From positions 1-17,669 of the IMG/VR virus record IMGVR_UViG_3300045988_015366: a stretch of 17,669 bases of DNA. The stretch is one strand, 5' to 3'. Below the pieces are notes generated by a model, which saw only the letters and a program-made list of their open reading frames with translations, made no database searches and had not been told where the DNA came from. Source of the DNA: a virus. Within the stretch, counting starts at the first letter, position 1, and each line of letters opens with the position of its first letter. The position numbers and the translations under genes were made by a program. Shown here in pieces: positions 1 to 17,669 of the stretch.

Positions 1-124
1 TTAGGACAATGGGTCTGCCTATGTCAGGACATTTGTTTGTGTGGTTCAGTTCACATGTTTCTGGGTTGACTCATGAAGAACTCTGGTGCATTATTAATAC
101 ATGAACGGAGCGGGGTTAGCCCGC
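1..124. repeat. Left inverted terminal repeat (ITR). It is the reverse complement of 17546-17669 with 3 mismatches at positions 56, 74 and 109. Weaker homology, including the ribosome-binding site GGAAGGAAC, continues to about position 147.
   Basis: Direct comparison of the window start with the reverse complement of the window end. Window position 1 pairs with 17669. Confidence 0.9.
66..94 (+). promoter_or_regulatory. Candidate sigma70-like promoter inside the ITR: TTGACT (66-71), 17-nt spacer, CATTAT (89-94), with TG just upstream. It would drive the inward-reading first gene at 145.
   Basis: Hexamer match by eye. The identical element sits in the right ITR. Confidence 0.3.
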
Positions 125-144
125 ACAGAACGGAAGGAACTGAG

Positions 145-378
145 ATGGAACACATTAAGACATTGCTTGGAGCGTCGGCATATAAGTTCTACAAGGAAGT
201 GGGGTACAGTGTTCAGACGTATGCAGGGGGCTTGAGAGGCATTGTGAGTTATGGTGGCGATGAAATTAGCGTTTTTCGTCACGGTCTTCGAAACTGGGAG
301 GTGCGTGACACCGATGGTGATTCGTTTTGGTTTGGTTCTCAGTGGGAACTGTTGTCCTGGTTTGGTGATCGGTTGTGA
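145..378 (+). CDS. Left terminal early gene, a 77-aa hypothetical protein. The likely true start is the ATG at 145, preceded by GGAAGGA. The upstream ATG at 73 lies inside the ITR.
   Basis: ORF track 73..378. An internal Met has a strong SD. The same SD-ATG arrangement is mirrored at the right end. Confidence 0.45.
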   Translation: MEHIKTLLGASAYKFYKEVGYSVQTYAGGLRGIVSYGGDEISVFRHGLRNWEVRDTDGDSFWFGSQWELLSWFGDRL

Positions 379-608
379 GGCATAGGGCTCACCATGGTGA
401 GGGTGACGATTTTGTCACCCTCACCAATTGGAAGGTTTCTAATTTTATTACACATGTGTTATTGAATGGATATCACATTGGTTATTATCGCGATACTGCT
501 CGGATTCATTATTGGAGGAATGGATCGAAGGATTATCACATAATTTCGATTGACAATATAATTTCAAGCAAAACAGGAATTGAAAACGGAATCATCAATC
601 ATGGATAA
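375..608 (+). CDS. Hypothetical 77-aa early protein. GTG start overlaps the upstream stop as GTGA.
   Basis: ORF track. It sits in the inward-reading left cassette. Confidence 0.3.
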   Translation: MRHRAHHGEGDDFVTLTNWKVSNFITHVLLNGYHIGYYRDTARIHYWRNGSKDYHIISIDNIISSKTGIENGIINHG

Positions 609-855
609 TTCGCTTAAATGGTTACTTGGCGACATAATTGACTACGCGTCCAATCAACAAGACATAATCGTTAAAACACCAACGATTATGTTGAGTGCAA
701 GAACAATAGGTCACCATATTTCTTGGGTATTGATTTACAAGAAAAAGAAATTTTCTATTATTGGAGAAATAGGCGACACAGATACAGTGTTTTATTCAAT
801 GAGAAATTTCATCTGCGACACGGACAAGGAATGTAATGAGTCAGACAATTCTTGA
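601..855 (+). CDS. Hypothetical early protein of about 84 aa from ATG 601 (the track gives a TTG at 580). It lies inside the AT-rich island.
   Basis: ORF track 580..855. Composition shifts sharply here. Confidence 0.3.
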   Translation: MDNSLKWLLGDIIDYASNQQDIIVKTPTIMLSARTIGHHISWVLIYKKKKFSIIGEIGDTDTVFYSMRNFICDTDKECNESDNS

Positions 856-944
856 GCGCACGGGCGACAGCAATTGGTACATTAAGCACACTTGCCTTAA
901 TGATACTCCTGAGCGGATGGCGGCTTGGGTTAAGTCGGTGAAGT

Positions 945-1187
945 GTGATGTCAATTCAGATGACTAAGAGAAAGTTACGTCATTACGGAATGAGGGAGTT
1001 TTATACTCCTGCGGGATGCAACATTCTTTATTGTGGTTGCACAGCATTTCGCCTGATTAATGATTACACAATGGAAGTGTGGAATCATTTTGAGACAGAA
1101 AGTGGAACAATTGTTCATTATGATTCGATGAATGAAAGAAATGAAGCATTGTTGGAAATGGGCATGGAAAGCATGGGAGTAATTTAA
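945..1187 (+). CDS. Hypothetical 80-aa early protein. Its stop overlaps the next start (TAATG).
   Basis: ORF track. The stop/start overlap suggests translational coupling. Confidence 0.35.
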   Translation: MMSIQMTKRKLRHYGMREFYTPAGCNILYCGCTAFRLINDYTMEVWNHFETESGTIVHYDSMNERNEALLEMGMESMGVI

Positions 1188-1462
1188 TGTATCACTTCAG
1201 GGAACTTGCTAAGAAACTTAATCTGACAGATCAACTGCCTGGATACAACATTGCTGTCAGGTGTGATCGGATTCTGATTGACGGCCTTGATTTTCGGCTT
1301 GACGTTTATGGTTGGCCAGATAATCGGGTAGTGTTTTCAGATAAGACTACAGGTCTAAATACCCTGAAGCGCTATGGTCATACTGGTGGTGAACAGTGTC
1401 GCAAAACCTGGCTTGAGATGCTTAATGCGATCGGAGTTGATACTACAGCGGCTGAGAACTGA
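1187..1462 (+). CDS. Hypothetical 91-aa early protein.
   Basis: ORF track. It is the last gene of the left inward cassette and ends just before the convergent hairpin. Confidence 0.35.
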   Translation: MYHFRELAKKLNLTDQLPGYNIAVRCDRILIDGLDFRLDVYGWPDNRVVFSDKTTGLNTLKRYGHTGGEQCRKTWLEMLNAIGVDTTAAEN

Positions 1463-1468
1463 GGACAT

Positions 1469-1508
1469 ACTTATCCCCGGAAGTGGTTGGTTCCTTCCGG
1501 GGATAAGT
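1469..1508. terminator. Bidirectional hairpin between convergent transcription units: ACTTATCCCCGGAAG, a 10-nt loop, then CTTCCGGGGATAAGT. The stem is a perfect 15 bp.
   Basis: Inverted repeat seen directly. GTTTAT follows on the plus strand. It lies between the plus-strand stop at 1462 and the minus-strand stop at 1511. Confidence 0.6.
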
Positions 1509-1510
1509 GT

Positions 1511-2329
1511 TTATGGGCGTTCTGCGGTGCGCGCGAGACGCTCCCATGCGGCCCAGGTCTCGGGGCCCCATATGCCGTCAATGGTGACGCCTAGGGCTCC
1601 CTGTAGGGATTCAATGACGCGGTCATGGGCGGCTTCACTGGCGTCACCCCAGATTCCATCTGGAGTGGTTCCTACAACCTGCTGGGTGTAGGCGACGCCC
1701 CATGGGAATTCGCGTCCTCCCCAGTTGCTGGCCTTGATTACGGCGCACATTCGCTTCTCAGTGTCAGTTCCAAGAATGTTGTCCTGTACTGCACCAAGAA
1801 TTCGCTGAATGTCTCGAATGTCTCCACCACTGGAAATGGCAGAATTATCGTCAACAACGCGAATGCCGTAGCGAGCAACGTCCATATTGCGCTCACGACG
1901 GGCAACAACACCACCATTGTCCTGTGGTCCACCAATTCCCCACGTGGTGTTTCCGTCAATGCTGTAGAAAACACCTGCGGAGTTCGGAGGTTGCTCAACG
2001 ACCCCAATGTGCTGGGCTACTCCAATACCGTCGAAGTCGAAGGTGATGAGGTCGCCGGGGCGCACGTCCCATTTGTCGATGAGTACGCCACGTGCTCGTG
2101 CCTGCGCTTCGCGGCCGGGGACGTAGGCGCTCACCCAGTTAATGCCTACCTTGTTGAGTACCCAGGAGACGAACATGTCGCAGTAGGGGACGCCGCTTGC
2201 ACCGAAACTGGGGGAGCCGGTTACCTGGGCGTACCAGCGCCCGTACTTAGTTCCCGCTTCGTCGTCTGCCCATCGGGAGTATCCGATCTCTGAGCGTGCT
2301 GCGGAGATAATGTCTGCGCGAGTTACCAT
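1511..2329 (-). CDS. Endolysin: an N-terminal CHAP peptidase domain (Cys in PYCDMFVSW, His in AQHIGVV) followed by two PG_binding_1-type peptidoglycan-binding repeats (IRDIQRILGAV..., LQGALGVTIDGIWGPETWAAWERL).
   Basis: Motif recognition. AAGGAG lies 6 nt upstream of the ATG. It is the last gene of the late operon, after the holin-like genes. Confidence 0.75.
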   Translation of the reverse strand: MVTRADIISAARSEIGYSRWADDEAGTKYGRWYAQVTGSPSFGASGVPYCDMFVSWVLNKVGINWVSAYVPGREAQARARGVLIDKWDVRPGDLITFDFDGIGVAQHIGVVEQPPNSAGVFYSIDGNTTWGIGGPQDNGGVVARRERNMDVARYGIRVVDDNSAISSGGDIRDIQRILGAVQDNILGTDTEKRMCAVIKASNWGGREFPWGVAYTQQVVGTTPDGIWGDASEAAHDRVIESLQGALGVTIDGIWGPETWAAWERLARTAERP

Positions 2330-2331
2330 AT

Positions 2332-2526
2332 TTACTCCTTGTTGGGGACGTTTCGGCTGGCAACGCCAAAGAATGTTGCGAATAGGAAGTTGAGCGCGGC
2401 AATCTTGTCGCCGTCAAACACGCCCCAGACACCGAGGCAGACGAGGACTCCGGCGCTAACGACGTAGAGCCAGAGTCGGTATGCGTCGGGAATGAAGGGC
2501 GGCTTAGGGGCCTCATGGTCACCCAT
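2332..2526 (-). CDS. Small two-TM membrane protein of 64 aa, a holin candidate.
   Basis: Two hydrophobic segments (LWLYVVSAGVLVCLGVWGV and IAALNFLFATFFGVA). AAGGAG precedes the start. It sits immediately upstream of the endolysin. Confidence 0.55.
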   Translation of the reverse strand: MGDHEAPKPPFIPDAYRLWLYVVSAGVLVCLGVWGVFDGDKIAALNFLFATFFGVASRNVPNKE

Positions 2527-2824
2527 TGTTTTTCTCCTTGAGATAGGAAATGATTTCTCTGAGTTGGCGGTTCTGCGCGTCTACGCTTGATCCGCCATGG
2601 TTTGGCTTGACATGATATTGCACGTCTTTCAGTTTGTCTTCAATATCTTCAAGCCGGTCCAGGACGCTAGGTGTCCCGTCTTTCCCGTCCCAAGCATTTA
2701 GCATGGACGCTAAATGATCCATGAATCGCGTGACACGGTAGATGAATCTGCCTGCGATTGTTAGCAGGGATATGACGCCGAGAACTAGGGCAACGTCAAT
2801 TGTGGTGGGACTAATGTGTATCAT
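2519..2824 (-). CDS. 101-aa protein with one N-terminal TM and a coiled-coil C-terminus. Possibly a holin, antiholin or lysis regulator.
   Basis: An N-terminal hydrophobic segment (VALVLGVISLLTIAG) followed by a charged helical tail. An ATGA overlap with the ATPase stop suggests translational coupling. Confidence 0.45.
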   Translation of the reverse strand: MIHISPTTIDVALVLGVISLLTIAGRFIYRVTRFMDHLASMLNAWDGKDGTPSVLDRLEDIEDKLKDVQYHVKPNHGGSSVDAQNRQLREIISYLKEKNNG

Positions 2825-3837
2825 CGGACAAAGATTTCAGCGAACATGTTACGCGTCTCAGGTGAGTCGGAGAAAAGACGGCCCTTCCTGTACGTGCTGC
2901 GCATGATGCTGAGCACTTTGTCACCATACATCAGTAGCCGCTCCCCTTCACGTAGATCAGAGACCTTATAGGCCCATCTTACCCTATCCCCGCGGGGCTG
3001 GCGGCGCTGGGCGAACCATGTGCCGCCGTCGATCCAGATAGAGACCTCGCCGTCGGGGCAACGCAGGGAGAATGCGTATTTGGCCTTTCCTGTCTTTTTC
3101 ATTACAAAGTCGTCGTAGTTGTCTGCGAATTTGTTGGAGATGGAATAGTCGGCATAGTCTTCGGCGTAGTTGGTGATGAATGAACCGAAGCGAGTGTGCG
3201 CAACTTCGGACTGAAATTGCTCACTATTCACGAAGTCGGTGACGATGAACCCTTCAGCGTGACGGCTAATTCCTTCTTTGGGCTCAATGTGGAATCGAAT
3301 GAAATAGGGATTCATAATACTGACAGCATTGGAGAGCATTAGACAGCGCACACGGTCCTGATAACGGTCCACAGTTGAGTAAAAGTCCATAAAAACTTTC
3401 GCCTCATCAGGAAGATACCGCAGCGAACCTTTATCAATGATGAACTCATCAAAGATAATGGTGTACACATTCGGGTAGGCAATAGACTTATTCGCCTGCG
3501 CCGTAGAAAGAGGAATGAAATAGCCGATAGTCTCCCATTTCTTTCCCACCTTCCTTTGCGCAAACTGCCCTTCGACACGGAATTCCTCATCAGGAAACTC
3601 GTGTTGAATGTCGGCGAAGAAACTGTTACGCCCCTTGAGTTCAGTCTTGTACCTACGAAGGTAAATGAATTGCTGTCCCTTATTGATTGCGTTCTTGATA
3701 ACAATCTTCTTAGCCCCGTAGGTCTTTCCAAGCCCACGAGCACCCATAATCATATTAAACACGCCCGCATACGAGAGCACGTTAGAGAAAGAATAATAGG
3801 AAAACTTTTTCTTCATCAGTGTCGCCTTACCGTCCAC
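2821..3837 (-). CDS. DNA encapsidation (packaging) ATPase, a phi29 gp16 homolog.
   Basis: Walker A GARGLGKT and Walker B IIFDEF. Similarity to phi29 gp16 along its length (FIYLRRYK, AYPNVYTIIFDEFI, RVRCLMLSNAVSIMNPYF). Confidence 0.9.
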   Translation of the reverse strand: MDGKATLMKKKFSYYSFSNVLSYAGVFNMIMGARGLGKTYGAKKIVIKNAINKGQQFIYLRRYKTELKGRNSFFADIQHEFPDEEFRVEGQFAQRKVGKKWETIGYFIPLSTAQANKSIAYPNVYTIIFDEFIIDKGSLRYLPDEAKVFMDFYSTVDRYQDRVRCLMLSNAVSIMNPYFIRFHIEPKEGISRHAEGFIVTDFVNSEQFQSEVAHTRFGSFITNYAEDYADYSISNKFADNYDDFVMKKTGKAKYAFSLRCPDGEVSIWIDGGTWFAQRRQPRGDRVRWAYKVSDLREGERLLMYGDKVLSIMRSTYRKGRLFSDSPETRNMFAEIFVR

Positions 3838-5105
3838 CAGCGCGTGGCGCTTAGATTGTCTATAGACTTCTTAACGGGACCATAATACGGGTTACCACCA
3901 TGGCCTACAGTGGTGTTCTGGTCCACAACCATTTCTACGTGATCTGTTTCAGGGTACACACTGCCCGTAGAGCGCCACGCCATGACGATCATGTCCCCAG
4001 GTCGTAGGAGGGCCTTCTGGGCGGCCGTCATAGCCCCAGAACCACGCTCAATGACTGCCTGCCCACGGAAGTACTGGTCGCCCGTCCACGTGCCTACGAA
4101 GACTCCGCTAGTGGCTTTGTAGGCGGCGTACATGAGTCCGCTACAGTCAGTGATTCCTGAGTTGTCGGGGTCCTGGCGGCCAGGACACTGACAGTAGGCG
4201 AACTTGCCTAAGCGGGCTAGGACCCATGCGAGCGCCTTGGCTCCGTTGGAGCCATCGGACGGGACCGCTCCCCCACCTCCTGGGGTAGGAGCACCTGCCT
4301 GCCCGCCCGTGATGTTCTGGACGATTTCACCGATATTTACTTCCCATAGATTGTGTCCTTTGGAGTATAGACGGTGAATTCCGAATTTTGATCGCATTGT
4401 GAGGATGTTTGAGTCATCTGCGGTAATGATGACCTTGCCACCGTCAACGGTTACTTGCTGACCGTTTTGACCAACACTTCCACCATTTCCAGGTGTGCTA
4501 ACACCGCCTACGCCAACATCAACGCCGCTGGTGTCTTTGTTTGCGATAATGTTCTTGGCGCCATTGTAGCGATTATAGTACCTCCCCAGAACACCATTAG
4601 CCATAATGGCGTTGTACATCTGATTAAGGCCGCCACCAGAATAGTTATTCGCTGCTTGCAGGGCATAGCGGGGACCCTGGTGATAGGCCACGCACCAGAG
4701 AATAAACGCATCAGTGTCTGTCTCAGGATTAATGTCATATTGCTTGGCAACATTAAAATACGACTCAAGGTCCTTGGCAATCTGGTCACCCTGAATATCT
4801 TTGCTAGCAAGTAACAGGTCACGAAGACTATCCCCAGCCGCCCTGCTCAGGTAGTAGGTGTTCCACGAACTGGAGGACTCGGAGACAGTTTCCAGGCGAC
4901 TACGCAGGTCAGCGTCTACGCGCGCGTACTCTGCCGTATGGGCTGCACGCATACGGTTAAGGATAGCGGCCGCTCGAGTCCCATACCACTGTGCCAAGCC
5001 AACGGTAATGGGGTCGTTATAGTTGATTGCCGCATAGTTCATAGACGACTCAACCTGACCAATTGCCTTGACAGCAACTTTCTTTGCGGTAGCGTCCCAA
5101 GCCAC
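3816..5105 (-). CDS. Tail-associated peptidoglycan hydrolase, positionally phi29 gp13-like. The N-terminal region looks like a lytic transglycosylase or lysozyme domain (ES...GLAQ). A Gly-rich linker follows, then a C-terminal NlpC/P60 endopeptidase (DCSGLMYAAY ... PGDMIV ... DHVEMVV).
   Basis: Motif recognition. GTG start with AGGAGGAAATT upstream. It sits between the appendage gene and the ATPase, as phi29 gene 13 does. Confidence 0.7.
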   Translation of the reverse strand: MAWDATAKKVAVKAIGQVESSMNYAAINYNDPITVGLAQWYGTRAAAILNRMRAAHTAEYARVDADLRSRLETVSESSSSWNTYYLSRAAGDSLRDLLLASKDIQGDQIAKDLESYFNVAKQYDINPETDTDAFILWCVAYHQGPRYALQAANNYSGGGLNQMYNAIMANGVLGRYYNRYNGAKNIIANKDTSGVDVGVGGVSTPGNGGSVGQNGQQVTVDGGKVIITADDSNILTMRSKFGIHRLYSKGHNLWEVNIGEIVQNITGGQAGAPTPGGGGAVPSDGSNGAKALAWVLARLGKFAYCQCPGRQDPDNSGITDCSGLMYAAYKATSGVFVGTWTGDQYFRGQAVIERGSGAMTAAQKALLRPGDMIVMAWRSTGSVYPETDHVEMVVDQNTTVGHGGNPYYGPVKKSIDNLSATRWWTVRRH

Positions 5106-5122
5106 AATTTCCTCCTAAACTA

Positions 5123-5155: not shown

Positions 5156-5160
5156 CGTCC

Positions 5161-6648
5161 TCAGAATATGGGGTATGTTGCGTTGACAGCGAATGTCTTT
5201 TCGCTGCCTAGCCTTGCGGCCGGAACTAGAGCACCAGTGTTATCGACGATTAGCGGAAATGCTGTAGCATTATCCCACGCCGTAATGTACATGTTTCGAT
5301 ACGGTCTAGCCCACGCAGGAACATTAAACATTGTCAAGAACGCTTCAAGTTGAACGACCGAAAAGATTCCGTGAATGCTTACAGTATCACGCTTTCGAGC
5401 AATGAACATCTGTAGGTTGTTGTCATTCTTGACCCGATCAAAACTTGCACCATTCTTGAGATTGTGCCAACCGAAATCAACCCAACCACTTCCACCTTCA
5501 AGCCAGTTGTCAAACTGTCGCTGCGCAAACTCATAGCCAGCAACACCGAAGTGAACACCAGCATCATCCGGGAAGTAGCGCGAGTTCTTACCGTTGTGGA
5601 ACCACGACCTTGACCCTTCGCAAACTAGCGCACCGTAGGGCTCAAGAACCTCCTTGAGCACGTTAGTTGCGTTGGCACAGTTCATCGCCATATTCCAGTC
5701 ATTGTTGAGCGAATGCTCATTATACAGAACCGGAATAACATAGATCTTTGCGTTAGGAAAAGCCCTTACAGCCTTCTTGATAAACGTAGTGGCAGACTCA
5801 CGAATGTCTTTCTGCCCACGAATATCGTTAAGCATGTCAATAATATAGATCTGTCCCGTAAGACGTGCACGGTCACCAACAGAGTCGGAGATAGCGCGAT
5901 CAATCTGAGTGTTGAAGTTATTGTCGGGAGTACTGGTAAATCCACCACCAGAATACCCATAGTTGTGTGGAATCTCGCCCTTAGCAGTAACCCAGCGCTC
6001 CCAGGTTCCGTTGGGCCAACCACGACTCTCAGCGTTAGATGAACCAATGATAATCGAGTGTGGGTACATCACCCTATGAAGAGGATTATACCGCTTATCA
6101 CTATCAGTCTTGTTGTAGAAATTATTGTCAACAGTCTGCTTGAGAGTCGCAAGGCGACTAGTCACGTCACCACTAAGCGCTATAGCGGAAGACTTGATCT
6201 CAGATATCTGGGAATCAATCTTGTCCTGCCACTTCTTCGACGGAACCTTCAACTTCCCACCAGCAATCGTGGGGGCCGCAACAGTGTCTCCCCCGTCGTC
6301 GCCAGTAAACAATGCGGTGACAACTCTGTTCTCGAAAGACTTTAGCCGCGTTTCCAGTTCTGCGCGTTTAGCGTTGACGGAAGAGTCCCAGTTGTTATGC
6401 AGTTTCTCCATCTCAGTGATGAAGTTTGTAACAACCTCATTGATTCGCTTAACAACCTTGTCCTGCTCTTCGCCGAAACTGTTAGTGAATTCGATAACGT
6501 CAATCACGCTTCGACGAATTCGTTCAAGCACGTCAACATACGTGAGGCCGTCAGAGTACGTGAAAGGGGTGACGTTGTTTAGTGATCGCGAATTAACTCG
6601 CCAAAGAGCACGGTCAATGTTGCCGAGAATCTCATCACCAGTAGCCAT
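5161..6648 (-). CDS. Tail appendage or fibre protein. The N-terminus is a coiled-coil anchor. The central domain has SGNH/GDSL-hydrolase-like blocks (IIIGSSNAE, a Gly block, SLNND, DDAGVHF), suggesting a receptor-modifying esterase. The likely start is the ATG at 6648, preceded by GGAGGA. The track's upstream extension to 6744 lies inside the lower-collar gene.
   Basis: Block motifs by eye. It occupies the phi29 gene-12 position (pre-neck appendage, an enzyme-bearing receptor protein). Confidence 0.5.
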   Translation of the reverse strand: MATGDEILGNIDRALWRVNSRSLNNVTPFTYSDGLTYVDVLERIRRSVIDVIEFTNSFGEEQDKVVKRINEVVTNFITEMEKLHNNWDSSVNAKRAELETRLKSFENRVVTALFTGDDGGDTVAAPTIAGGKLKVPSKKWQDKIDSQISEIKSSAIALSGDVTSRLATLKQTVDNNFYNKTDSDKRYNPLHRVMYPHSIIIGSSNAESRGWPNGTWERWVTAKGEIPHNYGYSGGGFTSTPDNNFNTQIDRAISDSVGDRARLTGQIYIIDMLNDIRGQKDIRESATTFIKKAVRAFPNAKIYVIPVLYNEHSLNNDWNMAMNCANATNVLKEVLEPYGALVCEGSRSWFHNGKNSRYFPDDAGVHFGVAGYEFAQRQFDNWLEGGSGWVDFGWHNLKNGASFDRVKNDNNLQMFIARKRDTVSIHGIFSVVQLEAFLTMFNVPAWARPYRNMYITAWDNATAFPLIVDNTGALVPAARLGSEKTFAVNATYPIF

Positions 6649-7357
6649 AGTATCCTCCAATACCATATCCGTAGATTCCACTCCCAATAAGTCCCCCGGG
6701 AGTTTTAGGGTTGTCGCCATCCCAGATACCCATGAATAGGTCACTAATATCTGCGATAACTAGATCGTCAACATTAATTAGAGTGCTTCGGTAATCAGCA
6801 ATAGCCCGCGCCTTACTTCCCGAATAACCCCACGATTCAGAGTTCTGGTTATTCGTGTAGTTCGACGTCGATGATGACGTACTGTCCGACTCATTCCGGG
6901 ACGTAGAACCCCCGCTAGTGCTGGCGTCGCTAATTGACGTGGCATAGTCGCCATCGCCCGCAAGGCGTGTCTGAGGCGTGTCAGAACCAACCGTACGCCC
7001 CTTGGACTCATTGGTCCCACTACCGCTGCCAGTCTGATGGTTGACTCCAGAGTTTTGAGACTTCCCGTCCTGGCCGGTGCGTGAGTAATGCCGATTGCCC
7101 TCAAGCGGGTCGGTGTTCTGAAGTTCAGCAAGATACATTCGATTATACCGAGGCATAATCAAGTCCATCCGCAACCTCATTCGCCACACGAAAATGTCAA
7201 CAGTTTCGTGCCCGATTTCCTGCAGCCAGTACTCACGTTTAATCCGATCATTAAGTGTTGCCCTGTATGCCTCATCAAAAATCGGATAACTGTCAAGACC
7301 AATATGGTCATCGGTTATTCTGACAACATCACGAAGCATCATTGTTGTTACCGACAT
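6635..7357 (-). CDS. Lower collar protein, phi29 gp11-like, with a central Ser/Thr/Asn/Gly-rich low-complexity segment. The start is probably the ATG at 7357, preceded by GGGGGTGA. The track extends it to 7369.
   Basis: It sits between the connector and appendage genes. The N-terminal region resembles phi29 gp11, and the low-complexity middle is typical. Confidence 0.55.
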   Translation of the reverse strand: MSVTTMMLRDVVRITDDHIGLDSYPIFDEAYRATLNDRIKREYWLQEIGHETVDIFVWRMRLRMDLIMPRYNRMYLAELQNTDPLEGNRHYSRTGQDGKSQNSGVNHQTGSGSGTNESKGRTVGSDTPQTRLAGDGDYATSISDASTSGGSTSRNESDSTSSSTSNYTNNQNSESWGYSGSKARAIADYRSTLINVDDLVIADISDLFMGIWDGDNPKTPGGLIGSGIYGYGIGGYYGYW

Positions 7358-10551: not shown

Positions 10552-11919
10552 TCACTTCTTGACCTGAATACTAATCTCCTTGTTCGCAGGCTTATTACCG
10601 TTAAGCCCCTTGGTGTCAACATTCACACCAAGAGTAAGGAAAGCCTCAGGCTCATCCGGTCCGATAGTAATAACACCATCATTGCTAACCTTAGTTCCCT
10701 TAGACTTGGCGTTCTTAAGGTACCAATCCGTCGCATAGCCCTTATTCGCGGGCGCAGTCTTCCACTGAATAGCCGCCTGACGAACAGCGCCCGGAGGCAT
10801 AATCGTGGACTGAGTTCCGTCAGGACGACTCACCGTGAGGTTCGCGATCTCGGCGTTAGTCTCAGCCTTAGGCGTCACCACAATCGTGTTCGGCTTAGTT
10901 CCGAACGCGATCGCCGGAGTAAACGGTGAAGCGCTCAAAACGGACCAATGGTGCAACCAATAGTTGTCATACAGTCCCTCGGGGTTAGAGATACTCCGGT
11001 TCTCAAGGAGCAGGTCCTTGATGACGAAGAACTGTTTACTGGTGAGGATGGCGGAAGTGTCATCCATTCCCATAACCTCGGAAGGAACAGTGATGATATG
11101 AGACGGCGCCTCAGCATCACTACGGTTGAAAGCCGCGGCCAGCGAGGTCACGTCAACGTTCGCCTTAAACTCGGGAGTTGCAATAAGCACCAGGTCCTCA
11201 GGGCGGGCAAAAGAGTGAACACCGGCCGAGTTGAATGCTGGCGTTGGATACATCATTTTATTCGCCGCAACTCGAAGGGCCTTGAGCGCCGTGTCAACCT
11301 TATCCTTATTCACCTCAAACTGGTTGAGGTCAGCGATCTGCATCCTGAAGAAACCAAACGAATCATCGTAGGTCTTGAACAGGCGCGTCATGTACAAGAA
11401 CTCCGACCACTCATCAGAAGACGCGGCCACAGACATAATCTGAGAAATCATCTCAGAAAGACCGTTATCCGAAAGAAAAGCCCTACGGAGAACGTCGCGG
11501 TTAAACGTAATCTTAAACTTCTCCTTGCGGTTAAGAGTGTGGAAAGCACTCTTAGCCGGGGGAGGGGCCTGCCCGAAGACGTCGCGCTCGAGATAGTCGC
11601 GCTGCTCTTCGTAAATGGTGGGCTTAATGAAGTCAAGGTGAACCTCTTCAATTGTGTCACCGAAGTTCATCATTCCCTGCTTAAAAACAGCTAGCGGGTT
11701 CTTCCACGAAATGTCTCGGACGATGGTAGAACCAATGCGGTTAATCATGGCTGACATAAACTCATTTCGAGTAATGTTGTCAGACATGATTCCGGCGATA
11801 GTCTCCTGGATATTGGCCTTAGTGGCCTCAGGAACCATGTTCTGGTAGTCATAGCGCGCATCGCTTCGGATGGCGTTAAGAATATCAATGTTAGTAGTGT
11901 CGTCACGCAACTGGGGCAT
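10552..11919 (-). CDS. Major capsid protein, a phi29 gp8 homolog. It likely carries a C-terminal Ig-like surface domain.
   Basis: Shared blocks with phi29 gp8 (NPL..FK.G....TIEE near the N-terminus; NPEGLYDNYWLHHWSVLSASPF against gp8 [22 protein letters not shown]). It follows the scaffold gene. Confidence 0.85.
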   Translation of the reverse strand: MPQLRDDTTNIDILNAIRSDARYDYQNMVPEATKANIQETIAGIMSDNITRNEFMSAMINRIGSTIVRDISWKNPLAVFKQGMMNFGDTIEEVHLDFIKPTIYEEQRDYLERDVFGQAPPPAKSAFHTLNRKEKFKITFNRDVLRRAFLSDNGLSEMISQIMSVAASSDEWSEFLYMTRLFKTYDDSFGFFRMQIADLNQFEVNKDKVDTALKALRVAANKMMYPTPAFNSAGVHSFARPEDLVLIATPEFKANVDVTSLAAAFNRSDAEAPSHIITVPSEVMGMDDTSAILTSKQFFVIKDLLLENRSISNPEGLYDNYWLHHWSVLSASPFTPAIAFGTKPNTIVVTPKAETNAEIANLTVSRPDGTQSTIMPPGAVRQAAIQWKTAPANKGYATDWYLKNAKSKGTKVSNDGVITIGPDEPEAFLTLGVNVDTKGLNGNKPANKEISIQVKK

Positions 11920-11921
11920 AA

Positions 11922-12953
11922 TCAGTTATCCTTAAACAGATCGGTAATTGACTTGGGGTTCCAACCGGAATCGGGAACCTTGCTATTCTCATTGTCTGAC
12001 CTGGAAAACAGGCCAGACAATCCTGCCAACGTCTTTCCAGTGCTCTTTGCGGCCTCCGTATCAATGTCTAGTGCATCAACTATAGCATTTCCAGCGTCCT
12101 TCGCAGCAGTACCCGCCGTTCCAGCCGCCGCCTTACCCACGGTACCCAGGTCCCTGCCTACCCTCTCGGCCGTGTCCTTAGTGTTGTTCAAGGTTGCCTT
12201 AACGTCGTCCAGTCGCATCTCCTTGGACTCAGGAACATCATCCCCCGCATAAGGGTTATTGAGTTCCCTGTCGGTTGGCTCAAGGGCTTGACCTAGATTG
12301 GCCTCAAGTTCTGACTGGAGTTTAGATACCTTCTCACCGAAAACTTCAGTGAGTTTCTGCCACGCTTCTTTAGTGTCAGCAAACGGGTCTTTCTTCTCTT
12401 CCTCAGGAACAATGGGATCGCCCGGCTTATTGTTTCCTTTTTCCGAAGAAACCTCAATGCCATCACCATCAGTGTCCCCAGGATCATGAGCCTGCGCGCC
12501 CTGGTGGTCCTTGGGGTCTTCGCCCATTGCGCGCCACTCTTCGTCAGTGCGCTGACCACCATTCTGATTCTGAGCTGCTTCGGCGGCCTTCTTAGGATTA
12601 GCGAGGTCATCGGGATTCTTAGGTGTTACGCCCTTATTGGCTTCGTGCCGCGCCTTCTGTTCGGCCTTGGCCTTCTCCATCCCCGCCGCTTCCTTGGCGG
12701 CCTCCTTGTCCTCCTTCTCCCGTTCCTTGCCAAGTCCTTCCTGGACGCGTGAATTAACGTCACCCGCGAACTTACCAGGGTCCTTAACAATCTCCTTTAC
12801 TGAGGGTTTAGCGGCCTCCTTGGCCTTGGCTTCATTCTTTTTCTGTTGATACAGTTTCTCACCAAGAATTCGCCTATTGCGATCATCCTGGGCTTTATTA
12901 ACTTCATTCTGCAGGCGCACTCTCTGTGCGTAGTCGTTTTCTTTCTTTGCCAC
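11922..12953 (-). CDS. Putative scaffolding protein: highly charged, Lys/Glu/Ala-rich and low-complexity.
   Basis: Composition, and position immediately upstream of the capsid gene (the phi29 gene 7 slot). GTG start with AGGAGGAATT upstream. Confidence 0.5.
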   Translation of the reverse strand: MAKKENDYAQRVRLQNEVNKAQDDRNRRILGEKLYQQKKNEAKAKEAAKPSVKEIVKDPGKFAGDVNSRVQEGLGKEREKEDKEAAKEAAGMEKAKAEQKARHEANKGVTPKNPDDLANPKKAAEAAQNQNGGQRTDEEWRAMGEDPKDHQGAQAHDPGDTDGDGIEVSSEKGNNKPGDPIVPEEEKKDPFADTKEAWQKLTEVFGEKVSKLQSELEANLGQALEPTDRELNNPYAGDDVPESKEMRLDDVKATLNNTKDTAERVGRDLGTVGKAAAGTAGTAAKDAGNAIVDALDIDTEAAKSTGKTLAGLSGLFSRSDNENSKVPDSGWNPKSITDLFKDN

Positions 12954-12968
12954 AATTCCTCCTAAAAA

Positions 12969-13000
12969 GGTAGGCTAGGAACTTACGTTCCTAGCCTACC
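12969..13000 (-). terminator. Canonical intrinsic terminator on the minus strand. The stem is a perfect 14 bp (GGTAGGCTAGGAAC / GTTCCTAGCCTACC) with a 4-nt loop, followed on the transcript by TTTTT and then directly by AGGAGGAATTGTG of the scaffold gene.
   Basis: Seen directly. It separates the replication/early block from the structural block on the same strand. A 14-bp perfect palindrome could also be a protein operator. Confidence 0.65.
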
Positions 13001-13094
13001 ACAATACCCAACTATCTGAAAGTGATCCTGAGGGGTGCTACCCAACCGAGCAAGGCCCAGTTCATTAGGTTGCTTCCTCGCAATCGGTCAGAAC

Positions 13095-13262
13095 TCACTT
13101 AGCAGACTTGGGAGCATTCTTGGCGAGATACTCAATAACCGCCGCCTCAACAATCTCCGAAGAATCCTTGCGAAGAACCCAGTGCATCTCTTCGAGATCA
13201 GCAACAACAGACTTGGAGAGACGGAACTTAACAGTGGTGTGAGTAGAAACAGGACGTGCCAT
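13095..13262 (-). CDS. 55-aa ribbon-helix-helix (CopG/Arc/MetJ-like) DNA-binding protein: MARPVSTHTTVKFRLSKSVVADLEEMHWVLRKDSSEIVEAAVIEYLAKNAPKSAK. It is absent from the ORF track because it is short.
   Basis: Translated by hand. It shows the classic beta-strand (VKFRLS), helix (LEEMHWVLRKD) and second helix (EIVEAAVIEYL) pattern. It starts 15 nt after the polymerase stop. Confidence 0.6.
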   Translation of the reverse strand: MARPVSTHTTVKFRLSKSVVADLEEMHWVLRKDSSEIVEAAVIEYLAKNAPKSAK

Positions 13263-13276
13263 GATGATTACCAACC

Positions 13277-14977
13277 TTAATCAATCTTGAGTGTGAATGT
13301 TGTATCCTTGAGGACTGTTCCCCCAGGAACCCTTACGGGAATCAGTTTACCATTCCAAGAACCGCCGCGCAACATGTCATCTAGCGTAAGTGTTGCTGCC
13401 ACGTTCCGGGGCATCCCCGCAATGTGTACATCTAGTTTACCATCAATTTCCTCTGCGTATTGCTTCGCGCGAATGTAGACCGATTTTGTGAAAGAACTCT
13501 CATGCTTCCAAGCGCCCAGTTCTACAGGGTCAACCCACAGTGAGTCCGGGGGAGTGGTAGGACCAATCAGGTGCAAAGAGTCTGTATCGGCGTACGCGAA
13601 GGTTTCATAGTTATCTTGTGCTGCGCTGATAGTTTTCTTCCGAGCGTATGCAGTAATGAAAACACCCATCGGAGTGTAAACAGGGTCACGCGTCTCCGGT
13701 TCATTCATTACTAGTGAGACTCTGTTATCTTTTAGTTCAGGGTGTTTTCCAGTAATGTCGGGGTTAGTTGCGAACTTTCCATACAAACTGTTTAGATGTA
13801 GTTTTGCGATTTGCCGCAATCCACCTGTACTGTTTTTCTTAATCTCCATAAAATGATCAACATAATTGTCGAAAAATCCGTGTGAGCCGCGAAACTCAAA
13901 CGTTCCATTCCATGAATAAATCTTAAAGTCATAATGTTTTTTCCACAATTCAATATCGATGTTTGTTGCTACAACAGTTGTTGGTTCAGGAACATCTTCA
14001 AGGTACTGTGTTGGATTAAAGGATAGATTCTTTTTAATCTGAATGCAGGGAATGTGGTTGGGTTTAAGTTTTGCTGTAAACGTGATTGAAGCAATATATA
14101 GTGGACGATCTGTTCTAGGGGCGCCCTCCGAGTAGATCGGGTCTCCGTAGGGGAGTAGAGCCGTTCGCATAACAGAGGGATATAGAGAGTTGACGTCATA
14201 CACGCTTCCGACGCCATTCAGTTTCTTTGAGAATCTAGGGTCCGCATAAGTGAATCCGCCACGATATGCTTTTCTGATTTCTGTATCGATCCCGGGTGAG
14301 AGGATTGGGAATCGACGAATGAAAAGTTTCCCCGTCATCTTCTTGTAAGTAGCCAGCGAATCACTACCCGCCGTCAACTTCGTCATCTTCTCTGCAAACT
14401 GAACCTCGAGTGCTTGAGCAACAATCGCAACGTCATTCCGTTGATAGTGTTTCTCTTGCTCTGTAGGAATATATCCTATTGGGCGATGCTTTTCATAGTC
14501 GATCTCTAGTTTCTGGTCATGTAGGTTGAATGCCTTAGCGATTGCTGAAACAGACATAGGCAATTTCTTAAACGAATCTCGAAACTCAACCCTATACCCT
14601 GTCTCAAAAACCACAGTAATTGAATAATACTTCCCCATGCGAGAAATCAAGGAAGTAAATTCCTTCACCCCAGGTGAGTCCTTAGTCCACCTATATCCAT
14701 GCTTAAGCAACCAATCCAGAATGAATGTGCCATCAAAAGCGAGGTTGTGGAAATAAATGTGGGCCGCGCGTTCAGAGATGTGAGACATAAACCCATCAAG
14801 GCTAGTCCCGTCAACATAGTTCTGTAGTTTGCCTACCTGAATAATGCCCCAAGACCATACACGACAATCTTCCTCAACCGTAGTCGTCTCAAAGTCTGCA
14901 CAAAACGAAGGGACCTTCTTGTGGCTACGCCTAACGCCGGCCCTTACGGGCCTTGCGCTTGTTGATTGGCGAACCAC
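13277..14977 (-). CDS. Protein-primed family-B DNA polymerase, phi29 gp2-like.
   Basis: Exo I CADFETTT, Exo II YFHNLAFDGTFIL, Exo III YQRNDVAIV, motif A YDVNSLYPSVM, motif B KLHLNSLYGKF, motif C YADTDS, and a KQY motif. It is collinear with the phi29 DNAP, including the TPR-like insertions. GTG start with GGAGGA 8 nt upstream. It overlaps the terminal protein gene's 3' end by 47 nt in another frame. Confidence 0.95.
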   Translation of the reverse strand: MVRQSTSARPVRAGVRRSHKKVPSFCADFETTTVEEDCRVWSWGIIQVGKLQNYVDGTSLDGFMSHISERAAHIYFHNLAFDGTFILDWLLKHGYRWTKDSPGVKEFTSLISRMGKYYSITVVFETGYRVEFRDSFKKLPMSVSAIAKAFNLHDQKLEIDYEKHRPIGYIPTEQEKHYQRNDVAIVAQALEVQFAEKMTKLTAGSDSLATYKKMTGKLFIRRFPILSPGIDTEIRKAYRGGFTYADPRFSKKLNGVGSVYDVNSLYPSVMRTALLPYGDPIYSEGAPRTDRPLYIASITFTAKLKPNHIPCIQIKKNLSFNPTQYLEDVPEPTTVVATNIDIELWKKHYDFKIYSWNGTFEFRGSHGFFDNYVDHFMEIKKNSTGGLRQIAKLHLNSLYGKFATNPDITGKHPELKDNRVSLVMNEPETRDPVYTPMGVFITAYARKKTISAAQDNYETFAYADTDSLHLIGPTTPPDSLWVDPVELGAWKHESSFTKSVYIRAKQYAEEIDGKLDVHIAGMPRNVAATLTLDDMLRGGSWNGKLIPVRVPGGTVLKDTTFTLKID

Positions 14978-16007
14978 TGAAATCGTCCTCCGGTTTAATC
15001 TGGATTGAATGAATCTCCTTCAAGAGATTCTTAATGCCGCTGTTTGAATCTTCGACGTCTTCGTAATATAAATCTTCTCCCGCTCTACGTTTCTCGAAAT
15101 ACCCTTCTTTTGCTGCCTCATACTGCAAAGATAGTTGGTTGGCAAAATCGGCATTAACTGTCCACATTAGCCATAGCACGTCATCGGGAATATCTGTAAG
15201 AATGTCATACAGGTCAGGGTCACCAATAACATCAAGCATTGCCGCGATTTGTTTCTTAGCGTTAGTCAATTTCTGTTTCTTACCCTTAGCAGTTATGTCA
15301 CGCAAAACCTGATTGGTTTTCTCGCGCATTGCCTCAGCCGACTCAAAATTAACAGATCGCTTATCAGGATTCATTCGCTCAAGGGCGTAATGTGAACCAC
15401 CATCGAGATAGGTTTTCTTTGGACGAAAATCTCTAATCCAATCACCCACGCTAGCGTCACCTAATTGGGGGAGGTGTGTTCCCGAAACAGATTTCTCGTA
15501 AGCATCTATGTCTGCATTATAGCGTCGCACAGCATCACGATAACGACGAACGTCCTTAGCAGAGATGGGATTACCATGACGGTCACTATAATACCAAACA
15601 CTACTAGAATTATTAAACTCACTAAGACGCTCAAGTTCTCTCGAAGCATTCTTTAACGTAACCTTTCCTACCGCAGACTTACCCAACGGATCAAACTTAG
15701 TCCCACGAATATCCGCCCCGTCATCACTGGTGGCCATCCGATACATTTTTCTGATAGCCCTATCGCGCTCAACCTGAAGCATCTCACGCGCCTTATCCAA
15801 CTCAGACCTATGCTGTTCACGTTGACTCGCCTTAGCCGACTTGATCCGAGAACCACCCTGTTCCTCAGAAAGCGTATCCGGCAAAGGATTAAAAGAAAGA
15901 GAACCAACAAACGACCTAATATCATTCGCAGTATTCCGAACATTCTTCGCACCACGCTTAAACGCCCTATAATGCCTACCCCAATGAGACCTAACCAAAC
16001 CAATCAC
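14931..16007 (-). CDS. Putative terminal protein, the replication primer.
   Basis: It sits immediately upstream of the polymerase and overlaps it, as phi29 gene 3 does with gene 2. It is basic with a helical N-terminal half. A TP is required given the ITRs and a protein-primed polymerase. The start is uncertain: GTG at 16007 or TTG at 15998. Confidence 0.5.
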   Translation of the reverse strand: MIGLVRSHWGRHYRAFKRGAKNVRNTANDIRSFVGSLSFNPLPDTLSEEQGGSRIKSAKASQREQHRSELDKAREMLQVERDRAIRKMYRMATSDDGADIRGTKFDPLGKSAVGKVTLKNASRELERLSEFNNSSSVWYYSDRHGNPISAKDVRRYRDAVRRYNADIDAYEKSVSGTHLPQLGDASVGDWIRDFRPKKTYLDGGSHYALERMNPDKRSVNFESAEAMREKTNQVLRDITAKGKKQKLTNAKKQIAAMLDVIGDPDLYDILTDIPDDVLWLMWTVNADFANQLSLQYEAAKEGYFEKRRAGEDLYYEDVEDSNSGIKNLLKEIHSIQIKPEDDFSGSPINKRKARKGRR

Positions 16008-16032
16008 CCCCTGCCCCCTAAGGGGCAGGGGG
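16007..16032 (-). terminator. All-GC hairpin with an 11-bp stem (CCCCCTGCCCC / GGGGCAGGGGG) and a 4-nt loop, followed on the transcript by UGAUUGGUUUGGUU. It lies between the SSB and terminal protein genes and abuts or overlaps the terminal protein start codon.
   Basis: Seen directly. It could terminate or attenuate after the abundant SSB, or sequester the terminal protein ribosome-binding site. Confidence 0.5.
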
Positions 16033-16055
16033 CAACTAGTATCCTACAGGACCAC

Positions 16056-16421
16056 TCAGGCCAGCGTCACCGTCGTGTACTCACGACCACGACCAGACTT
16101 CGCCGAACCAATCTCAACAGCCACCGGCTCCGGCCACGACTTAACATCACCCAGAATATCCACAAGCCGCTGAATCTGGGCAACAACCGTCTGAGACGAC
16201 GTGCCGAACGCATTACCGTCCTTGTCAATCACAGTGATAGCCCGACGCGTCTCAACTTCACCAGTGTCCGTGTCAACAACATCATCCTCCGTGATAACAA
16301 TATCCTTGATTTCAATCGTCTTACCGCGCAGTTCCTTAAAAGAAACCGCCGAGTTCTGGGCCGTGAAAAAGGCCTTCTTGCCAGCGAAGTCATCAGAGAG
16401 AGAAGAGTAAACAACAGCCAT
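16056..16421 (-). CDS. Single-stranded DNA-binding protein, phi29 p5-like. The likely start is the ATG at 16421 (MAVVYSS), preceded by AAAGGAAA.
   Basis: Along-length similarity to phi29 p5. FFTAQNSAVSFKELRGKTIEI matches IFNAQTGGGQSFKNLPDGTII. VIDKDGNAFGTSSQTV matches IFAADGSLYSAISKTV. The C-terminus VAVEIGSAKSGRG matches VKVVQGTSSKGNV. Confidence 0.6.
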   Translation of the reverse strand: MAVVYSSLSDDFAGKKAFFTAQNSAVSFKELRGKTIEIKDIVITEDDVVDTDTGEVETRRAITVIDKDGNAFGTSSQTVVAQIQRLVDILGDVKSWPEPVAVEIGSAKSGRGREYTTVTLA

Positions 16422-16489
16422 GATCGTTTCCTTTCGTGTATGGCTTGATTTCATTTCAGAGTTCTGGTATTACCCGTCCAGCCGGGAAT

Positions 16490-16813
16490 CTAAAATAGAG
16501 GTGAGGTGTCAATGTCTTCAGGGAATAAAATAAACCCCTCATCTGTCAATGCTGTACATACAATATCTTCAGTTGACGTTTGTTTGTCAAACTCTAAATT
16601 ATGTGTGTCCACTGATAGTGTATGTGATGTGGTGGTTGTTCCCCGTCTAATTGTCACTTCATATTTAGTTCCAAGAATCTTGAAGCGTCGAATATGGTCA
16701 AATGATGTGAAGTATCTTTTAACTAGAAACCGCTTAGATTCAAGTCTATCAGAGTATGCTCTCACATAAAAATCATGATCAGTGTAATCAGCCCAGCCAC
16801 CCACAACAACCAA
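16490..16813 (-). CDS. Hypothetical 107-aa early protein with an acidic C-terminus. TTG start. Its N-terminal VVVGGWADYTDHD motif recurs in the 17272-17526 gene.
   Basis: ORF track. AT-rich. It sits in the p6/early-protein slot upstream of the SSB. Confidence 0.4.
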   Translation of the reverse strand: MVVVGGWADYTDHDFYVRAYSDRLESKRFLVKRYFTSFDHIRRFKILGTKYEVTIRRGTTTTSHTLSVDTHNLEFDKQTSTEDIVCTALTDEGFILFPEDIDTSPLF

Positions 16814-17019
16814 CTCCCAACCCTAGGCGCAGCCTTCGCAGCAATCATACCCCCAGCGACACCGACAGCAATCCTGCCCGCACTAAGGCGGTCGCCATGA
16901 CTGCGCACGTCACCACAAGAACAAGCTTGATCATCGCCAACAGAATTGTATCGCTCATTTTCCTGCCATCCCATTTCCTTGTCAATCCAGATAAGTTCGC
17001 CGTTAACGTTTTCCCACAT
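16762..17019 (-). CDS. Hypothetical 85-aa protein with a C-terminal hydrophobic segment. It lies on a GC-rich islet.
   Basis: ORF track. Putative TM WLLWVAGLITLIMIF. It overlaps its neighbours by 52 nt and 17 nt, so confidence is low. Confidence 0.3.
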   Translation of the reverse strand: MWENVNGELIWIDKEMGWQENERYNSVGDDQACSCGDVRSHGDRLSAGRIAVGVAGGMIAAKAAPRVGSWLLWVAGLITLIMIFM

Positions 17020-17287
17020 TGTTGTCCCTTGAGGGTAGTTCGCCCTGTGATAGAACGAATGAAATAATTTTATTCAGGTCTGCTGTGCTGAATTCTGAGA
17101 TAAAAACACCGTAATGTTTCATCTTATAGTCAAACACTACTTGCTCGCCATAAATGCTCACGTATAACGATGCTTCCTTGACTCTAAATGTTGCATGATT
17201 TCCACCACCTCGTATGAAATATTCAATCCAATGCGTGATGGTCTTCTTGATAACTTTATGAGTAGTCATAATCACACATCCAGCCAC
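17003..17287 (-). CDS. Hypothetical 94-aa early protein. GTG start.
   Basis: ORF track. AT-rich. Confidence 0.35.
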   Translation of the reverse strand: MAGCVIMTTHKVIKKTITHWIEYFIRGGGNHATFRVKEASLYVSIYGEQVVFDYKMKHYGVFISEFSTADLNKIISFVLSQGELPSRDNNVGKR

Positions 17288-17526
17288 TTATCAATCAAAG
17301 TCATTGCCTTAATCACTCCGCCCATGGTGGTTCTAAGTAGATTGAAGTCCCATTGGAATACAATAGAATCGTCATCGGGATTGTTGTCTAGTGCTACTAC
17401 ACGCGTGCCATGTATGTTAAACGCAACCCAATCGGCCTCATGGTTGACATAATAGTCTGTCCATCCGCCAATCACAGCCCTAAGTTTCATGCTGTTGCAA
17501 GGGTTCGTGTTCTGTGTGTTGTTCAT
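17272..17526 (-). CDS. Right terminal early gene of about 84 aa, starting at the ATG at 17526 behind the same GGAAGGAAC SD as the left end. It contains a VIGGWTDYYVNHE motif.
   Basis: ORF track 17272..17541. An internal Met has the mirrored SD. The N-terminal motif is shared with the 16490-16813 product. Confidence 0.45.
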   Translation of the reverse strand: MNNTQNTNPCNSMKLRAVIGGWTDYYVNHEADWVAFNIHGTRVVALDNNPDDDSIVFQWDFNLLRTTMGGVIKAMTLIDKWLDV

Positions 17527-17545
17527 TTCGGTTCCTTCCATTCCG

Positions 17546-17669
17546 GCGGGCTAACCCCGCCCCGTTCATGTATTAATAATGCACCAGAGTTCTTCGTGAG
17601 TCAACCCAGAAACGTGTGAACTGAACCACACAAACAAATGTCCTGACATAGGCAGACCCATTGTCCTAA
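17546..17669. repeat. Right inverted terminal repeat, partner of 1-124.
   Basis: The reverse complement of 17546-17669 equals 1-124 except for three T/C or A/G differences. Confidence 0.9.
17576..17604 (-). promoter_or_regulatory. Mirror copy of the ITR promoter candidate. On the minus strand, TTGACT is 17604-17599 and CATTAT is 17581-17576. It would drive the right terminal gene starting at 17526.
   Basis: The ITR is identical across both hexamers. Confidence 0.3.

Follow-up and report, generated by a model that had tools for sequence, protein, structure and literature searches.

The window analysed here, i.e., the whole 17,669-nt stretch of IMG/VR virus record IMGVR_UViG_3300045988_015366, carries the gene set of a phi29-like phage and ends on both sides in inverted copies of the same 124 bp. 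This raises the question whether such a contig is the complete linear genome of a new protein-primed phage, as the original prediction proposed. The results of this study point with high confidence to a different description, namely an uncultured podophage of the phi29 type, from the human mouth, whose genome is complete in its coding part but trimmed at the ends and which belongs to the Av-1 group (genus Dybvigvirus) as a separate species. The genome itself is ordinary: it adds one species to a known genus that is common in oral metagenomes, and the same sequence is publicly available as a metagenome contig that lacks annotation. Further work would be worthwhile on a covarying hairpin in the terminal repeats and on a structured RNA at the junction of the early and late genes.

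The relationship to Av-1 was clear in all comparisons. Among 50,697 phage records searched with megablast, the sole match was Actinomyces phage Av-1 (NC_009643 / DQ123818; classified by the International Committee on Taxonomy of Viruses, ICTV, as Dybvigvirus Av1), with 81.4% identity over 92% of the window. A single co-linear block was obtained with blastn (window 868-17023 versus Av-1 16711-539, 80.8%), and arithmetic on the co-linear blastn blocks gave about 76% of window positions identical to Av-1. By ICTV convention, phages of one genus share 70% or more nucleotide similarity with the type species across the genome. At about 76-81% to Av-1, the window lies above this line, which was also applied in PMC9502298, and does not reach the species line of at least 95%. 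Orthologues of 21 of the 22 Av-1 proteins are encoded in the window, in the same order and with identities of 57-99%; the values were 99% for the packaging ATPase, 98% for the single-stranded DNA-binding protein (SSB), 95% for the polymerase, 93% for the connector, 91% for the capsid protein, 81% for the terminal protein (TP) and 75% for an appendage candidate with an SGNH domain. The two phages also share homologous inverted terminal repeats (ITRs) with the same hairpin and promoter, and a layout of two convergent units. They differ in the small open reading frames (ORFs) at the left end, which occupy about 320 bp in Av-1 and about 700 bp in the window, and in an extra right-end ORF of the window (17003-17269).

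The lineage had originally been regarded as new and poorly sampled, and this is contradicted by the position of the polymerase, which falls at 95% amino acid identity within the described genus Dybvigvirus, by the co-linearity at about 81% and by the number of relatives. At least 132 IMG/VR contigs carry related polymerases, at least 163 carry related endolysins, and the terminal proteins had 240 cluster representatives. The closest IMG/VR contigs are about 92% identical to the window. Among cultured phages, the next-closest polymerases, those of Curtobacterium, Arthrobacter and Microbacterium phages, are about 50% identical. Studies of oral metagenomes (PMC3654486; bioRxiv 10.1101/633727) have repeatedly reported multiple Av-1-like phages. 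Eight contigs carry the exact TP sequence of the window and eight its exact endolysin sequence, and both sets include contig k127_90971 of the European Nucleotide Archive (ENA; ERZ989743), which comes from the human oral metagenome ERR589649 (PRJEB6997).

The inverted repeat on which the claim of completeness was based is real. Arms 1-124 and 17546-17669 are 98% identical in inverted orientation, with three mismatches, and a chance match is not a likely explanation because the next-best inverted repeat in the window measures only 44 nt at 70%. A weaker extension of the repeat (128-154 versus 17517-17543, 78%) spans the ribosome-binding site (RBS) of the first gene at either end. The ITR that is sought in phi29-like protein-primed phages is present, though its outer part of about 140 nt is absent from the window. 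It could be supposed instead that the complete genome ends where the window does and measures 17,669 bp, with ITRs of 124 bp, as the repeat stops at exactly the same base on both ends. However, contig k127_90971 (17,813 bp) contains the entire window, at offset 72, as an exact substring; this contig was rebuilt from two overlapping loci, is 100.000% identical to the window over both fetched parts and runs on for 72 nt on each side, where its repeat reaches 196 nt with three mismatches. Both window ends are therefore cuts. In addition, nucleotide 1 of the window aligns with nucleotide 141 of Av-1, the 210-bp ITR of which reaches 140 nt further out.

The position of the missing termini could be estimated from the relatives. 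An invariant ITR motif, AGGACATTTGTTTGTGTGGT, was found in 45 distinct IMG/VR contig ends; it lies 155-175 nt from the end in 28 of these and 26 nt from the end in the window. Sixteen contig ends cluster with the motif at 164-166 (166 in Av-1) and start with (T)GTGTCTGTGCCCCCC. The terminus common to Av-1 and at least 16 independent contig ends is 5'-TGTGTCTGTGCC, about 140 nt beyond the window, and a 92%-identical SPAdes contig of 17,947 bp begins GTGTCTGTG. A symmetric cut would be expected when an assembler collapses an identical outer inverted repeat into a single path, and the cut sits at the apex of a hairpin. True termini at the window ends are thus very improbable. Judged from the sequences compared, the window ends are not the physical ends, and about 140 nt would be missing from each, including the replication origins, which the window would lack. 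The true genome would measure about 17.95 kb, with ITRs of about 264 bp ending 5'-TGTGTCTGTG. Of the complete linear protein-primed genome first proposed, a linear phi29-like genome with real ITRs therefore stands and its completeness at the ends does not, as the sequence continues outward by 72 nt in the longer contig and by about 140 nt in the relatives.

An assembly artefact, i.e., a fold-back chimera or a circular permutation, could also produce inverted repeats, and fold-back-like chimeras were indeed seen at some IMG/VR contig ends (e.g., TATTAATATGCCCCCC). On the other hand, the two copies in the window differ at three positions and were therefore assembled separately, each copy leads into different unique sequence, the cultured Av-1 has homologous ITRs, and the same repeats are found on both ends of dozens of independent contigs, which leaves an artefact hardly credible. 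A few contig ends start with TATTAATAT joined to a terminal CCCCCC tract; they look like fold-back chimeras seeded by the palindrome region of the ITR.

This palindrome, of 17 bp with a 4-nt loop, is located about 123-160 nt from the true terminus. The window starts at its apex and keeps only the right arm (nt 6-22, mirrored at the other end), while the left arm can be seen in the longer, otherwise identical contig. Compensatory changes occurred in 9 of the 17 pairs among 16 sequence variants, and 97% of the cells were paired, compared with 31-52% when the partner was slid by 1-3 columns. T-G wobbles are found on the strand whose 5' end is the terminus, and this strand folds better than its complement (-25 versus -20 kcal/mol); it is the one displaced in protein-primed replication, and it has the same sense as inward transcription. 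No larger RNA was found when the terminal repeats were scanned, the 17-bp hairpin being the only result. The palindrome was also considered as an operator co-evolving with the ribbon-helix-helix (RHH) protein of the phage, and this candidate was rejected, the same RHH sequence occurring with different hairpin variants. Since the RHH variants do not track the hairpin variants, a structural element is favoured over an operator that co-evolves with the protein. Each repeat further carries an inward promoter-like site homologous to the -35/-10 elements annotated in Av-1. A second conserved TTGACA, with a 17-nt spacing to a TAGGTC preceded by TG, lies in the missing outer repeat (Av-1 76-115), upstream of the hairpin, and may be another inward promoter. 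At the inner edge of each repeat, a short GC hairpin (GCGGG-GTTAG-CCCGC; 110-124 and 17546-17560) separates the promoter-like site from the first RBS.

The polymerase matched the phi29 polymerase (1XHX; phmmer E=3e-139) over residues 25-564; the alignment of the two, which spans residues 9-575, runs through TPR1 and TPR2 with short gaps only, and the polymerase thus has both insertions that mark a polymerase of the protein-primed type. The gene between those of the SSB and the polymerase had been named a candidate for the TP. This assignment is favoured by the position of the gene, by the annotation of its Av-1 counterpart and by remote similarity to a protein that is annotated as 'DNA terminal protein' in Curtobacterium phage Penne (profile of 22 homologues; hhalign 89%, E=2e-6, 242 columns), whereas a family match and similarity to the phi29 TP do not add to it: no Pfam or PHROG family was matched by the candidate, and no PDB chain was matched in phmmer and profile searches. 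Protein priming has good support in the type of polymerase, in the repeats and in the order of the genes, though it is not demonstrated.

Several observations speak against this interpretation or limit parts of it. The candidate TP has no detectable similarity to the phi29 TP (hhalign probability 0.3%), and its AlphaFold model is poor (predicted local distance difference test, pLDDT, 45), the best Foldseek match having E=2.3 and the matches being meaningless. A TP covalently bound to the 5' ends is predicted from the genes and repeats. The promoters are consensus matches, and shuffled sequence contains at least as many of them as the window. The outermost 68 nt of each end would be those of the relatives, not read from the exact genome. 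As for the host, the actinobacterial assignment suggested earlier fits, Av-1, the only cultured close relative, infecting Actinomyces naeslundii; it is proposed by analogy with Av-1 alone, and in a search of genome assemblies two bins of metagenome-assembled genomes (MAGs) with related contigs were labelled Saccharibacteria and Atopobium. The Av-1-like contigs in this Candidatus Saccharibacteria MAG and this Atopobium MAG are about 17 kb long. These placements are probably mis-binned phage contigs.

Since phi29-type packaging uses a prohead RNA (pRNA), the window was also searched for structured RNAs. The 141-nt gap between the RHH gene (13095-13262) and the next gene (11922-12953) is strongly structured on the transcribed strand. 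The region folds at -68.4 kcal/mol (z -4.9), an alignment of the gap from 40 sequences had a structure conservation index (SCI) of 0.91 (z -12.7), and RNAalifold applied to 45 distinct relatives gave 52 pairs, 19 of them compensatory and almost none broken. The first branch of the three-way junction has a 6-nt bulge on its 5' side (AAGCAA) and a terminal hairpin, and the second is a short hairpin (GGG-UAGCAC-CCC). No other terminator-like site in the window is as strong as the terminator that follows. When a covariance model derived from 25 sequences was applied to 93 related loci, all 93 had a single full-length copy in the same location, and among them was a divergent clade with polymerases 83-87% identical (40-80 bits). 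In the covariance set 19 of 38 pairs covary and 84.5% of the cells are paired, compared with at most 42% in slid controls, in an alignment that was fitted to the model and hence favours the structure. No Rfam family was matched by the window and Av-1 at E<=1 or by the 191-nt region at E<=10; the hits were at chance level and did not include RF00044.

The RNA and its terminator (12969-13112, minus strand) may together be the packaging RNA of Av-1-like phages, with a counterpart in Curtobacterium phages, an identification that we hold tentatively and whose chances fall somewhat short of even. The resemblance to phi29 pRNA (RF00044) is one of architecture, i.e., a closing helix, a three-way junction, a bulged first branch, a second hairpin, a linker, and a terminator hairpin with U-run. 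All the elements of pRNA architecture that were looked for, from the closing helix, junction, bulged branch and second hairpin to covariation, were present, and the shape of the window RNA is nearly superimposable on the minimum free energy fold of the 174-nt phi29 pRNA. The sizes are also comparable (106 + 46 nt in the window, 117 + 57 nt in phi29), and the phage has packaging proteins of the gp16 and gp10 types. However, there are differences. No covariance-model match to RF00044 was obtained even at E<=10, the phi29 pRNA lies near the genome end while the window RNA lies at the early/late junction, and the window RNA is without a detected promoter of its own. Internal pRNAs have been reported for GA-1 and Karezi (PMC9965433). 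The complementarity between the bulge and the second loop, which could be the link that forms a ring, is only GC/GC (2 bp) in the clade of the window, compared with 3-5 bp elsewhere (UGC/GCA, CGC/GCG, UGCAA/UUGCA). A GCA motif is near-invariant in both loops, so that covariation is weak, and the complementarity is suggestive but weak as evidence of such a link.

The short loop-loop pairing would favour, instead of a packaging RNA, an RNA that acts in cis as a leader controlling read-through of the terminator, by put-/EAR-like antitermination or as a riboswitch-like attenuator, in the switch from early to late expression. The U-run of the terminator abuts the AGGAGGA RBS and the GTG start codon of gene 11922-12953, the first late gene, and no promoter-like site was found within 12850-13400; the late genes must therefore be reached through the terminator. 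The Curtobacterium phages share this arrangement, with a structured RNA and a terminator directly before the scaffold gene. In contrast, the overall shape of the RNA mirrors phi29 pRNA, and an alternative antiterminator pairing was not found on inspection by eye only. A leader function is in our view only slightly less likely than the packaging role, its chances likewise falling short of even. The packaging and read-through roles are compatible and not mutually exclusive.

In six Curtobacterium phages, the RNA is a conserved multi-branch structure in which a closing helix bears three hairpins and behind which lies a 17-bp terminator (53 pairs, 8 compensatory). It is about 114 nt long and unannotated, and lies in the gap that separates the scaffold gene from a small gene located after that of the polymerase. 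It differs from the window RNA in having three hairpins instead of two, and was not detected by the window-derived covariance model. Based on this syntenic RNA and terminator, the arrangement recurs in a second group of actinobacterial phi29-like phages.

The Av-1 record places a 'packaging RNA' elsewhere, at 16295-16402 (about window 1177-1284, minus strand). This region was rejected as a pRNA candidate, as the Av-1 segment is no more stably folded than shuffled sequences (z +0.5) and its window equivalent has no conserved structure in 20-sequence alignments (SCI 0.01-0.15), and the annotation looks unsupported. The annotated segment lies antisense to conserved small ORFs.

The remaining genes and elements of the window are summarised in Table 1. 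The phi29-type set recognised earlier was recovered in Pfam, PHROG and PDB searches, which matched the SSB, capsid, tail knob, connector, collar, gp16 and lysin genes; the phi29-type families of capsid, connector, tail knob, lower collar and ATPase are all represented. The polymerase, SSB, capsid, tail knob, connector, lower collar and gp16 ATPase families are those of phi29 (Salasmaviridae). The endolysin matched a PHROG endolysin (E=8e-112) and is 90% identical to LysA of Av-1. It had been described as a CHAP plus PG_binding_1 protein; the PG_binding_1 domain was found above threshold, and for the N-terminal part there was no CHAP match, only a sub-threshold NlpC/P60 hit (E=0.04). The holin genes had a weak match to Phage_holin_9. 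The tail lysin is 89% identical to gp14 of Av-1, which is labelled 'antireceptor' there, and carries NlpC/P60 where phi29 gp13 has an M23 domain. The appendage candidate occupies the position of phi29 gp12 and is the least conserved structural protein. The proposed scaffold gene has support from its syntenic counterpart in Ayka, annotated as a scaffolding protein, and lacks a family match, as neither Pfam nor PHROG matched its product, which is 83% identical to ORF 8 of Av-1. A head-fibre gene was not found in the window. The RHH protein, labelled hypothetical in Av-1, is a candidate transcription regulator.

Table 1. Positions of predicted genes and elements in the window
Feature	Position	Strand	Evidence
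Left ITR, inner part only of predicted ~264 bp	1..124	+	Inverted match 98%; aligns to Av-1 ITR from 141
ITR hairpin part: last left-arm base, 4-nt loop, 17-nt right arm	1..22	+	Mirror 17648-17669
Inward promoter-like site TTGACT-17-CATTAT	66..94	+	Consensus match; mirror 17576-17604 (-)
Left small-ORF cassette	145-378, 375-608 (uncertain), 601-855, 836-967	+	Inward-reading ORFs
Left cassette, Av-1-like ORFs	945-1187 (ORF B-like), 1187-1462 (ORF C-like)	+	Av-1 similarity
Convergent-unit hairpin, 14 bp, GC-rich, in 48-nt gap between endolysin gene and left cassette	1470..1507	both	Conserved structure
Endolysin, LysA-like: papain-like N-terminal domain and PG_binding_1	1511..2329	-	PF01471 E=4.8e-5
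Holins, HolB-like (2332-2526) and HolA-like (2519-2824)	2332..2824	-	Av-1 HolB 91%, HolA 86%
gp16-type DNA packaging ATPase	2821..3816	-	PF05894 E=2e-65, full length
gp13-like tail lysin, lysozyme-like N-terminus and NlpC/P60 C-terminus	3816..5105	-	PF00877 E=1.3e-5, PF18013 E=2e-4
Appendage/receptor-binding candidate, SGNH/GDSL hydrolase domain	5161..6648	-	PF13472 E=4e-7, just under cutoff
Lower collar, gp11-like	6635..7357	-	PHROG 3225 'adaptor Ad4' E=2.5e-51; phrog_5472 'lower collar'
Connector/portal, gp10-like	7329..8300	-	PF05352 E=2.4e-42
Tail knob, gp9-like	8293..10488	-	PF20934 E=1.3e-8; PHROG tail protein E=3e-139
Major capsid protein, gp8-like	10552..11919	-	PF25622 E=9e-99
Scaffold candidate, charged, 343 aa, directly upstream of capsid gene	11922..12953	-	Position only
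Intrinsic terminator, perfect 14-bp hairpin and U5, after short linker	12969..13000	-	Conserved in relatives
Structured RNA, three-way junction, long closing helix	13007..13112	-	5' 18 nt overlap RHH gene end
RHH protein, 55 aa, CopG-type, Av-1 ORF 7-like	13095..13262	-	PF01402 E=3.5e-4, 20.9 bits (cutoff 20.5)
Family B DNA polymerase, protein-primed type	13277..14977	-	PF03175 E=1.5e-69; Av-1 similarity
Candidate TP	14931..16007	-	Between SSB and polymerase genes, overlaps polymerase gene; Av-1 TP similarity
phi29 p5-type SSB	16056..16454	-	PF17427 E=1.9e-13
Right early small genes	16490-16804, 16762-17019, 17003-17269, 17272-17526	-	No family matches
Right ITR, inner part only	17546..17669	-	Inverted match to 1-124; Av-1 and longer-contig alignment

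The genes are arranged in two convergent units, one of 19 minus-strand genes (17526 down to 1511) and one of five or six small plus-strand genes (145-1462). The hairpin between them is the sole conserved structure of its region, on both strands (SCI 0.63-0.88, z -6 to -13), and is probably a bidirectional terminator. The one-direction order of replication and structural genes, which the original prediction set against phi29, is thus correct as a description and is not distinctive: it differs from phi29 but is not new, being the norm for Av-1 and the actinobacterial phi29-like phages. A common genomic organisation has been described for Ayka, Anjalivirus, Dybvigvirus and Badaztecvirus (PMC9502298), and the one-strand order of the window is found throughout the actinobacterial group of Curtobacterium phages Ayka and Penne, Arthrobacter Anjalivirus, Microbacterium PineapplePizza and Bifidobacterium Badaztecvirus (PMC9502298). 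Phage Penne, for example, has essentially the same order on one strand (SSB-TP-polymerase, then capsid-knob-portal-collar-appendage-lysin-ATPase), with the difference that every annotated gene is on that strand, without an opposed end cassette. These phages have a remotely homologous TP family (hhalign 89%), whereas their polymerases are only about 50% identical to that of the window. In phi29, by contrast, the ITRs measure 6 bp, the early and late units diverge and are under the control of p4 and p6, and the TP has no detectable similarity to that of the window.

It is in the small genes at the ends that the window departs from Av-1. Window 155-867 has no nucleotide match in Av-1, and its ORFs occur in 45-80 of the fetched loci; therefore it is Av-1 that holds the shorter cassette. 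Where the window has three or four small ORFs (145-967, plus strand), Av-1 has only the 40-amino-acid ORF A. None of the left-cassette ORFs (145-1462) had a function in Pfam or PHROG. At the right end, ORF 17003-17269 (88 amino acids) is absent from Av-1, has no family match and occurs in six fetched loci only. No significant paralogy was found among the small ORFs of the end cassettes, and a tRNA search of the window gave none. ORF 1374-1691 (plus strand), the equivalent of ORF D of Av-1, lies antisense in the 3' end of the endolysin gene and is absent from the ENA gene calls; it is probably not a gene, and its conservation may merely reflect the endolysin gene. TTG starts had been proposed for essential genes, yet with the starts of Av-1 and of the ENA gene calls no core gene begins with TTG, and GTG is the start of the TP, polymerase, gp08 and tail lysin genes.

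Taken together, a life cycle of the following kind can be proposed. The TP (14931-16007), bound to the phi29-type polymerase, would prime replication from both ends, and the terminal TG (TGTG) reiteration, outside the window, would permit a slide-back or jump-back step of protein priming. The identical inward promoters of the two repeats would serve the short left cassette on one side and, on the other, the small genes, SSB, TP, polymerase and RHH genes. This early unit would end in the structured RNA of about 106 nt and the strong terminator, abutting late genes that would need read-through. In packaging, the gp16-type ATPase would work on the gp10 connector, for which the structured RNA is the best candidate for a bridging packaging RNA.

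Based on the results of this study, an inverted repeat on both ends of a contig is no proof of completeness, as the symmetric cut gave a convincing false "complete genome". The RNA element is a concrete and testable pRNA candidate, unannotated in the window and in all 93 related loci searched. Reviews restrict the known occurrence of pRNA to phi29 and its relatives among the Bacillus phages (PMC11476376, 2024; PMC9965433). If the packaging-RNA reading is true, the 'packaging RNA' annotation in the Av-1 GenBank record would be misplaced, and pRNA-dependent packaging would not be confined to Bacillus phages but include phi29-like phages of actinobacteria. The source of the RNA would then be the 3' end of the early operon, so that it may double as a gate between early and late transcription.

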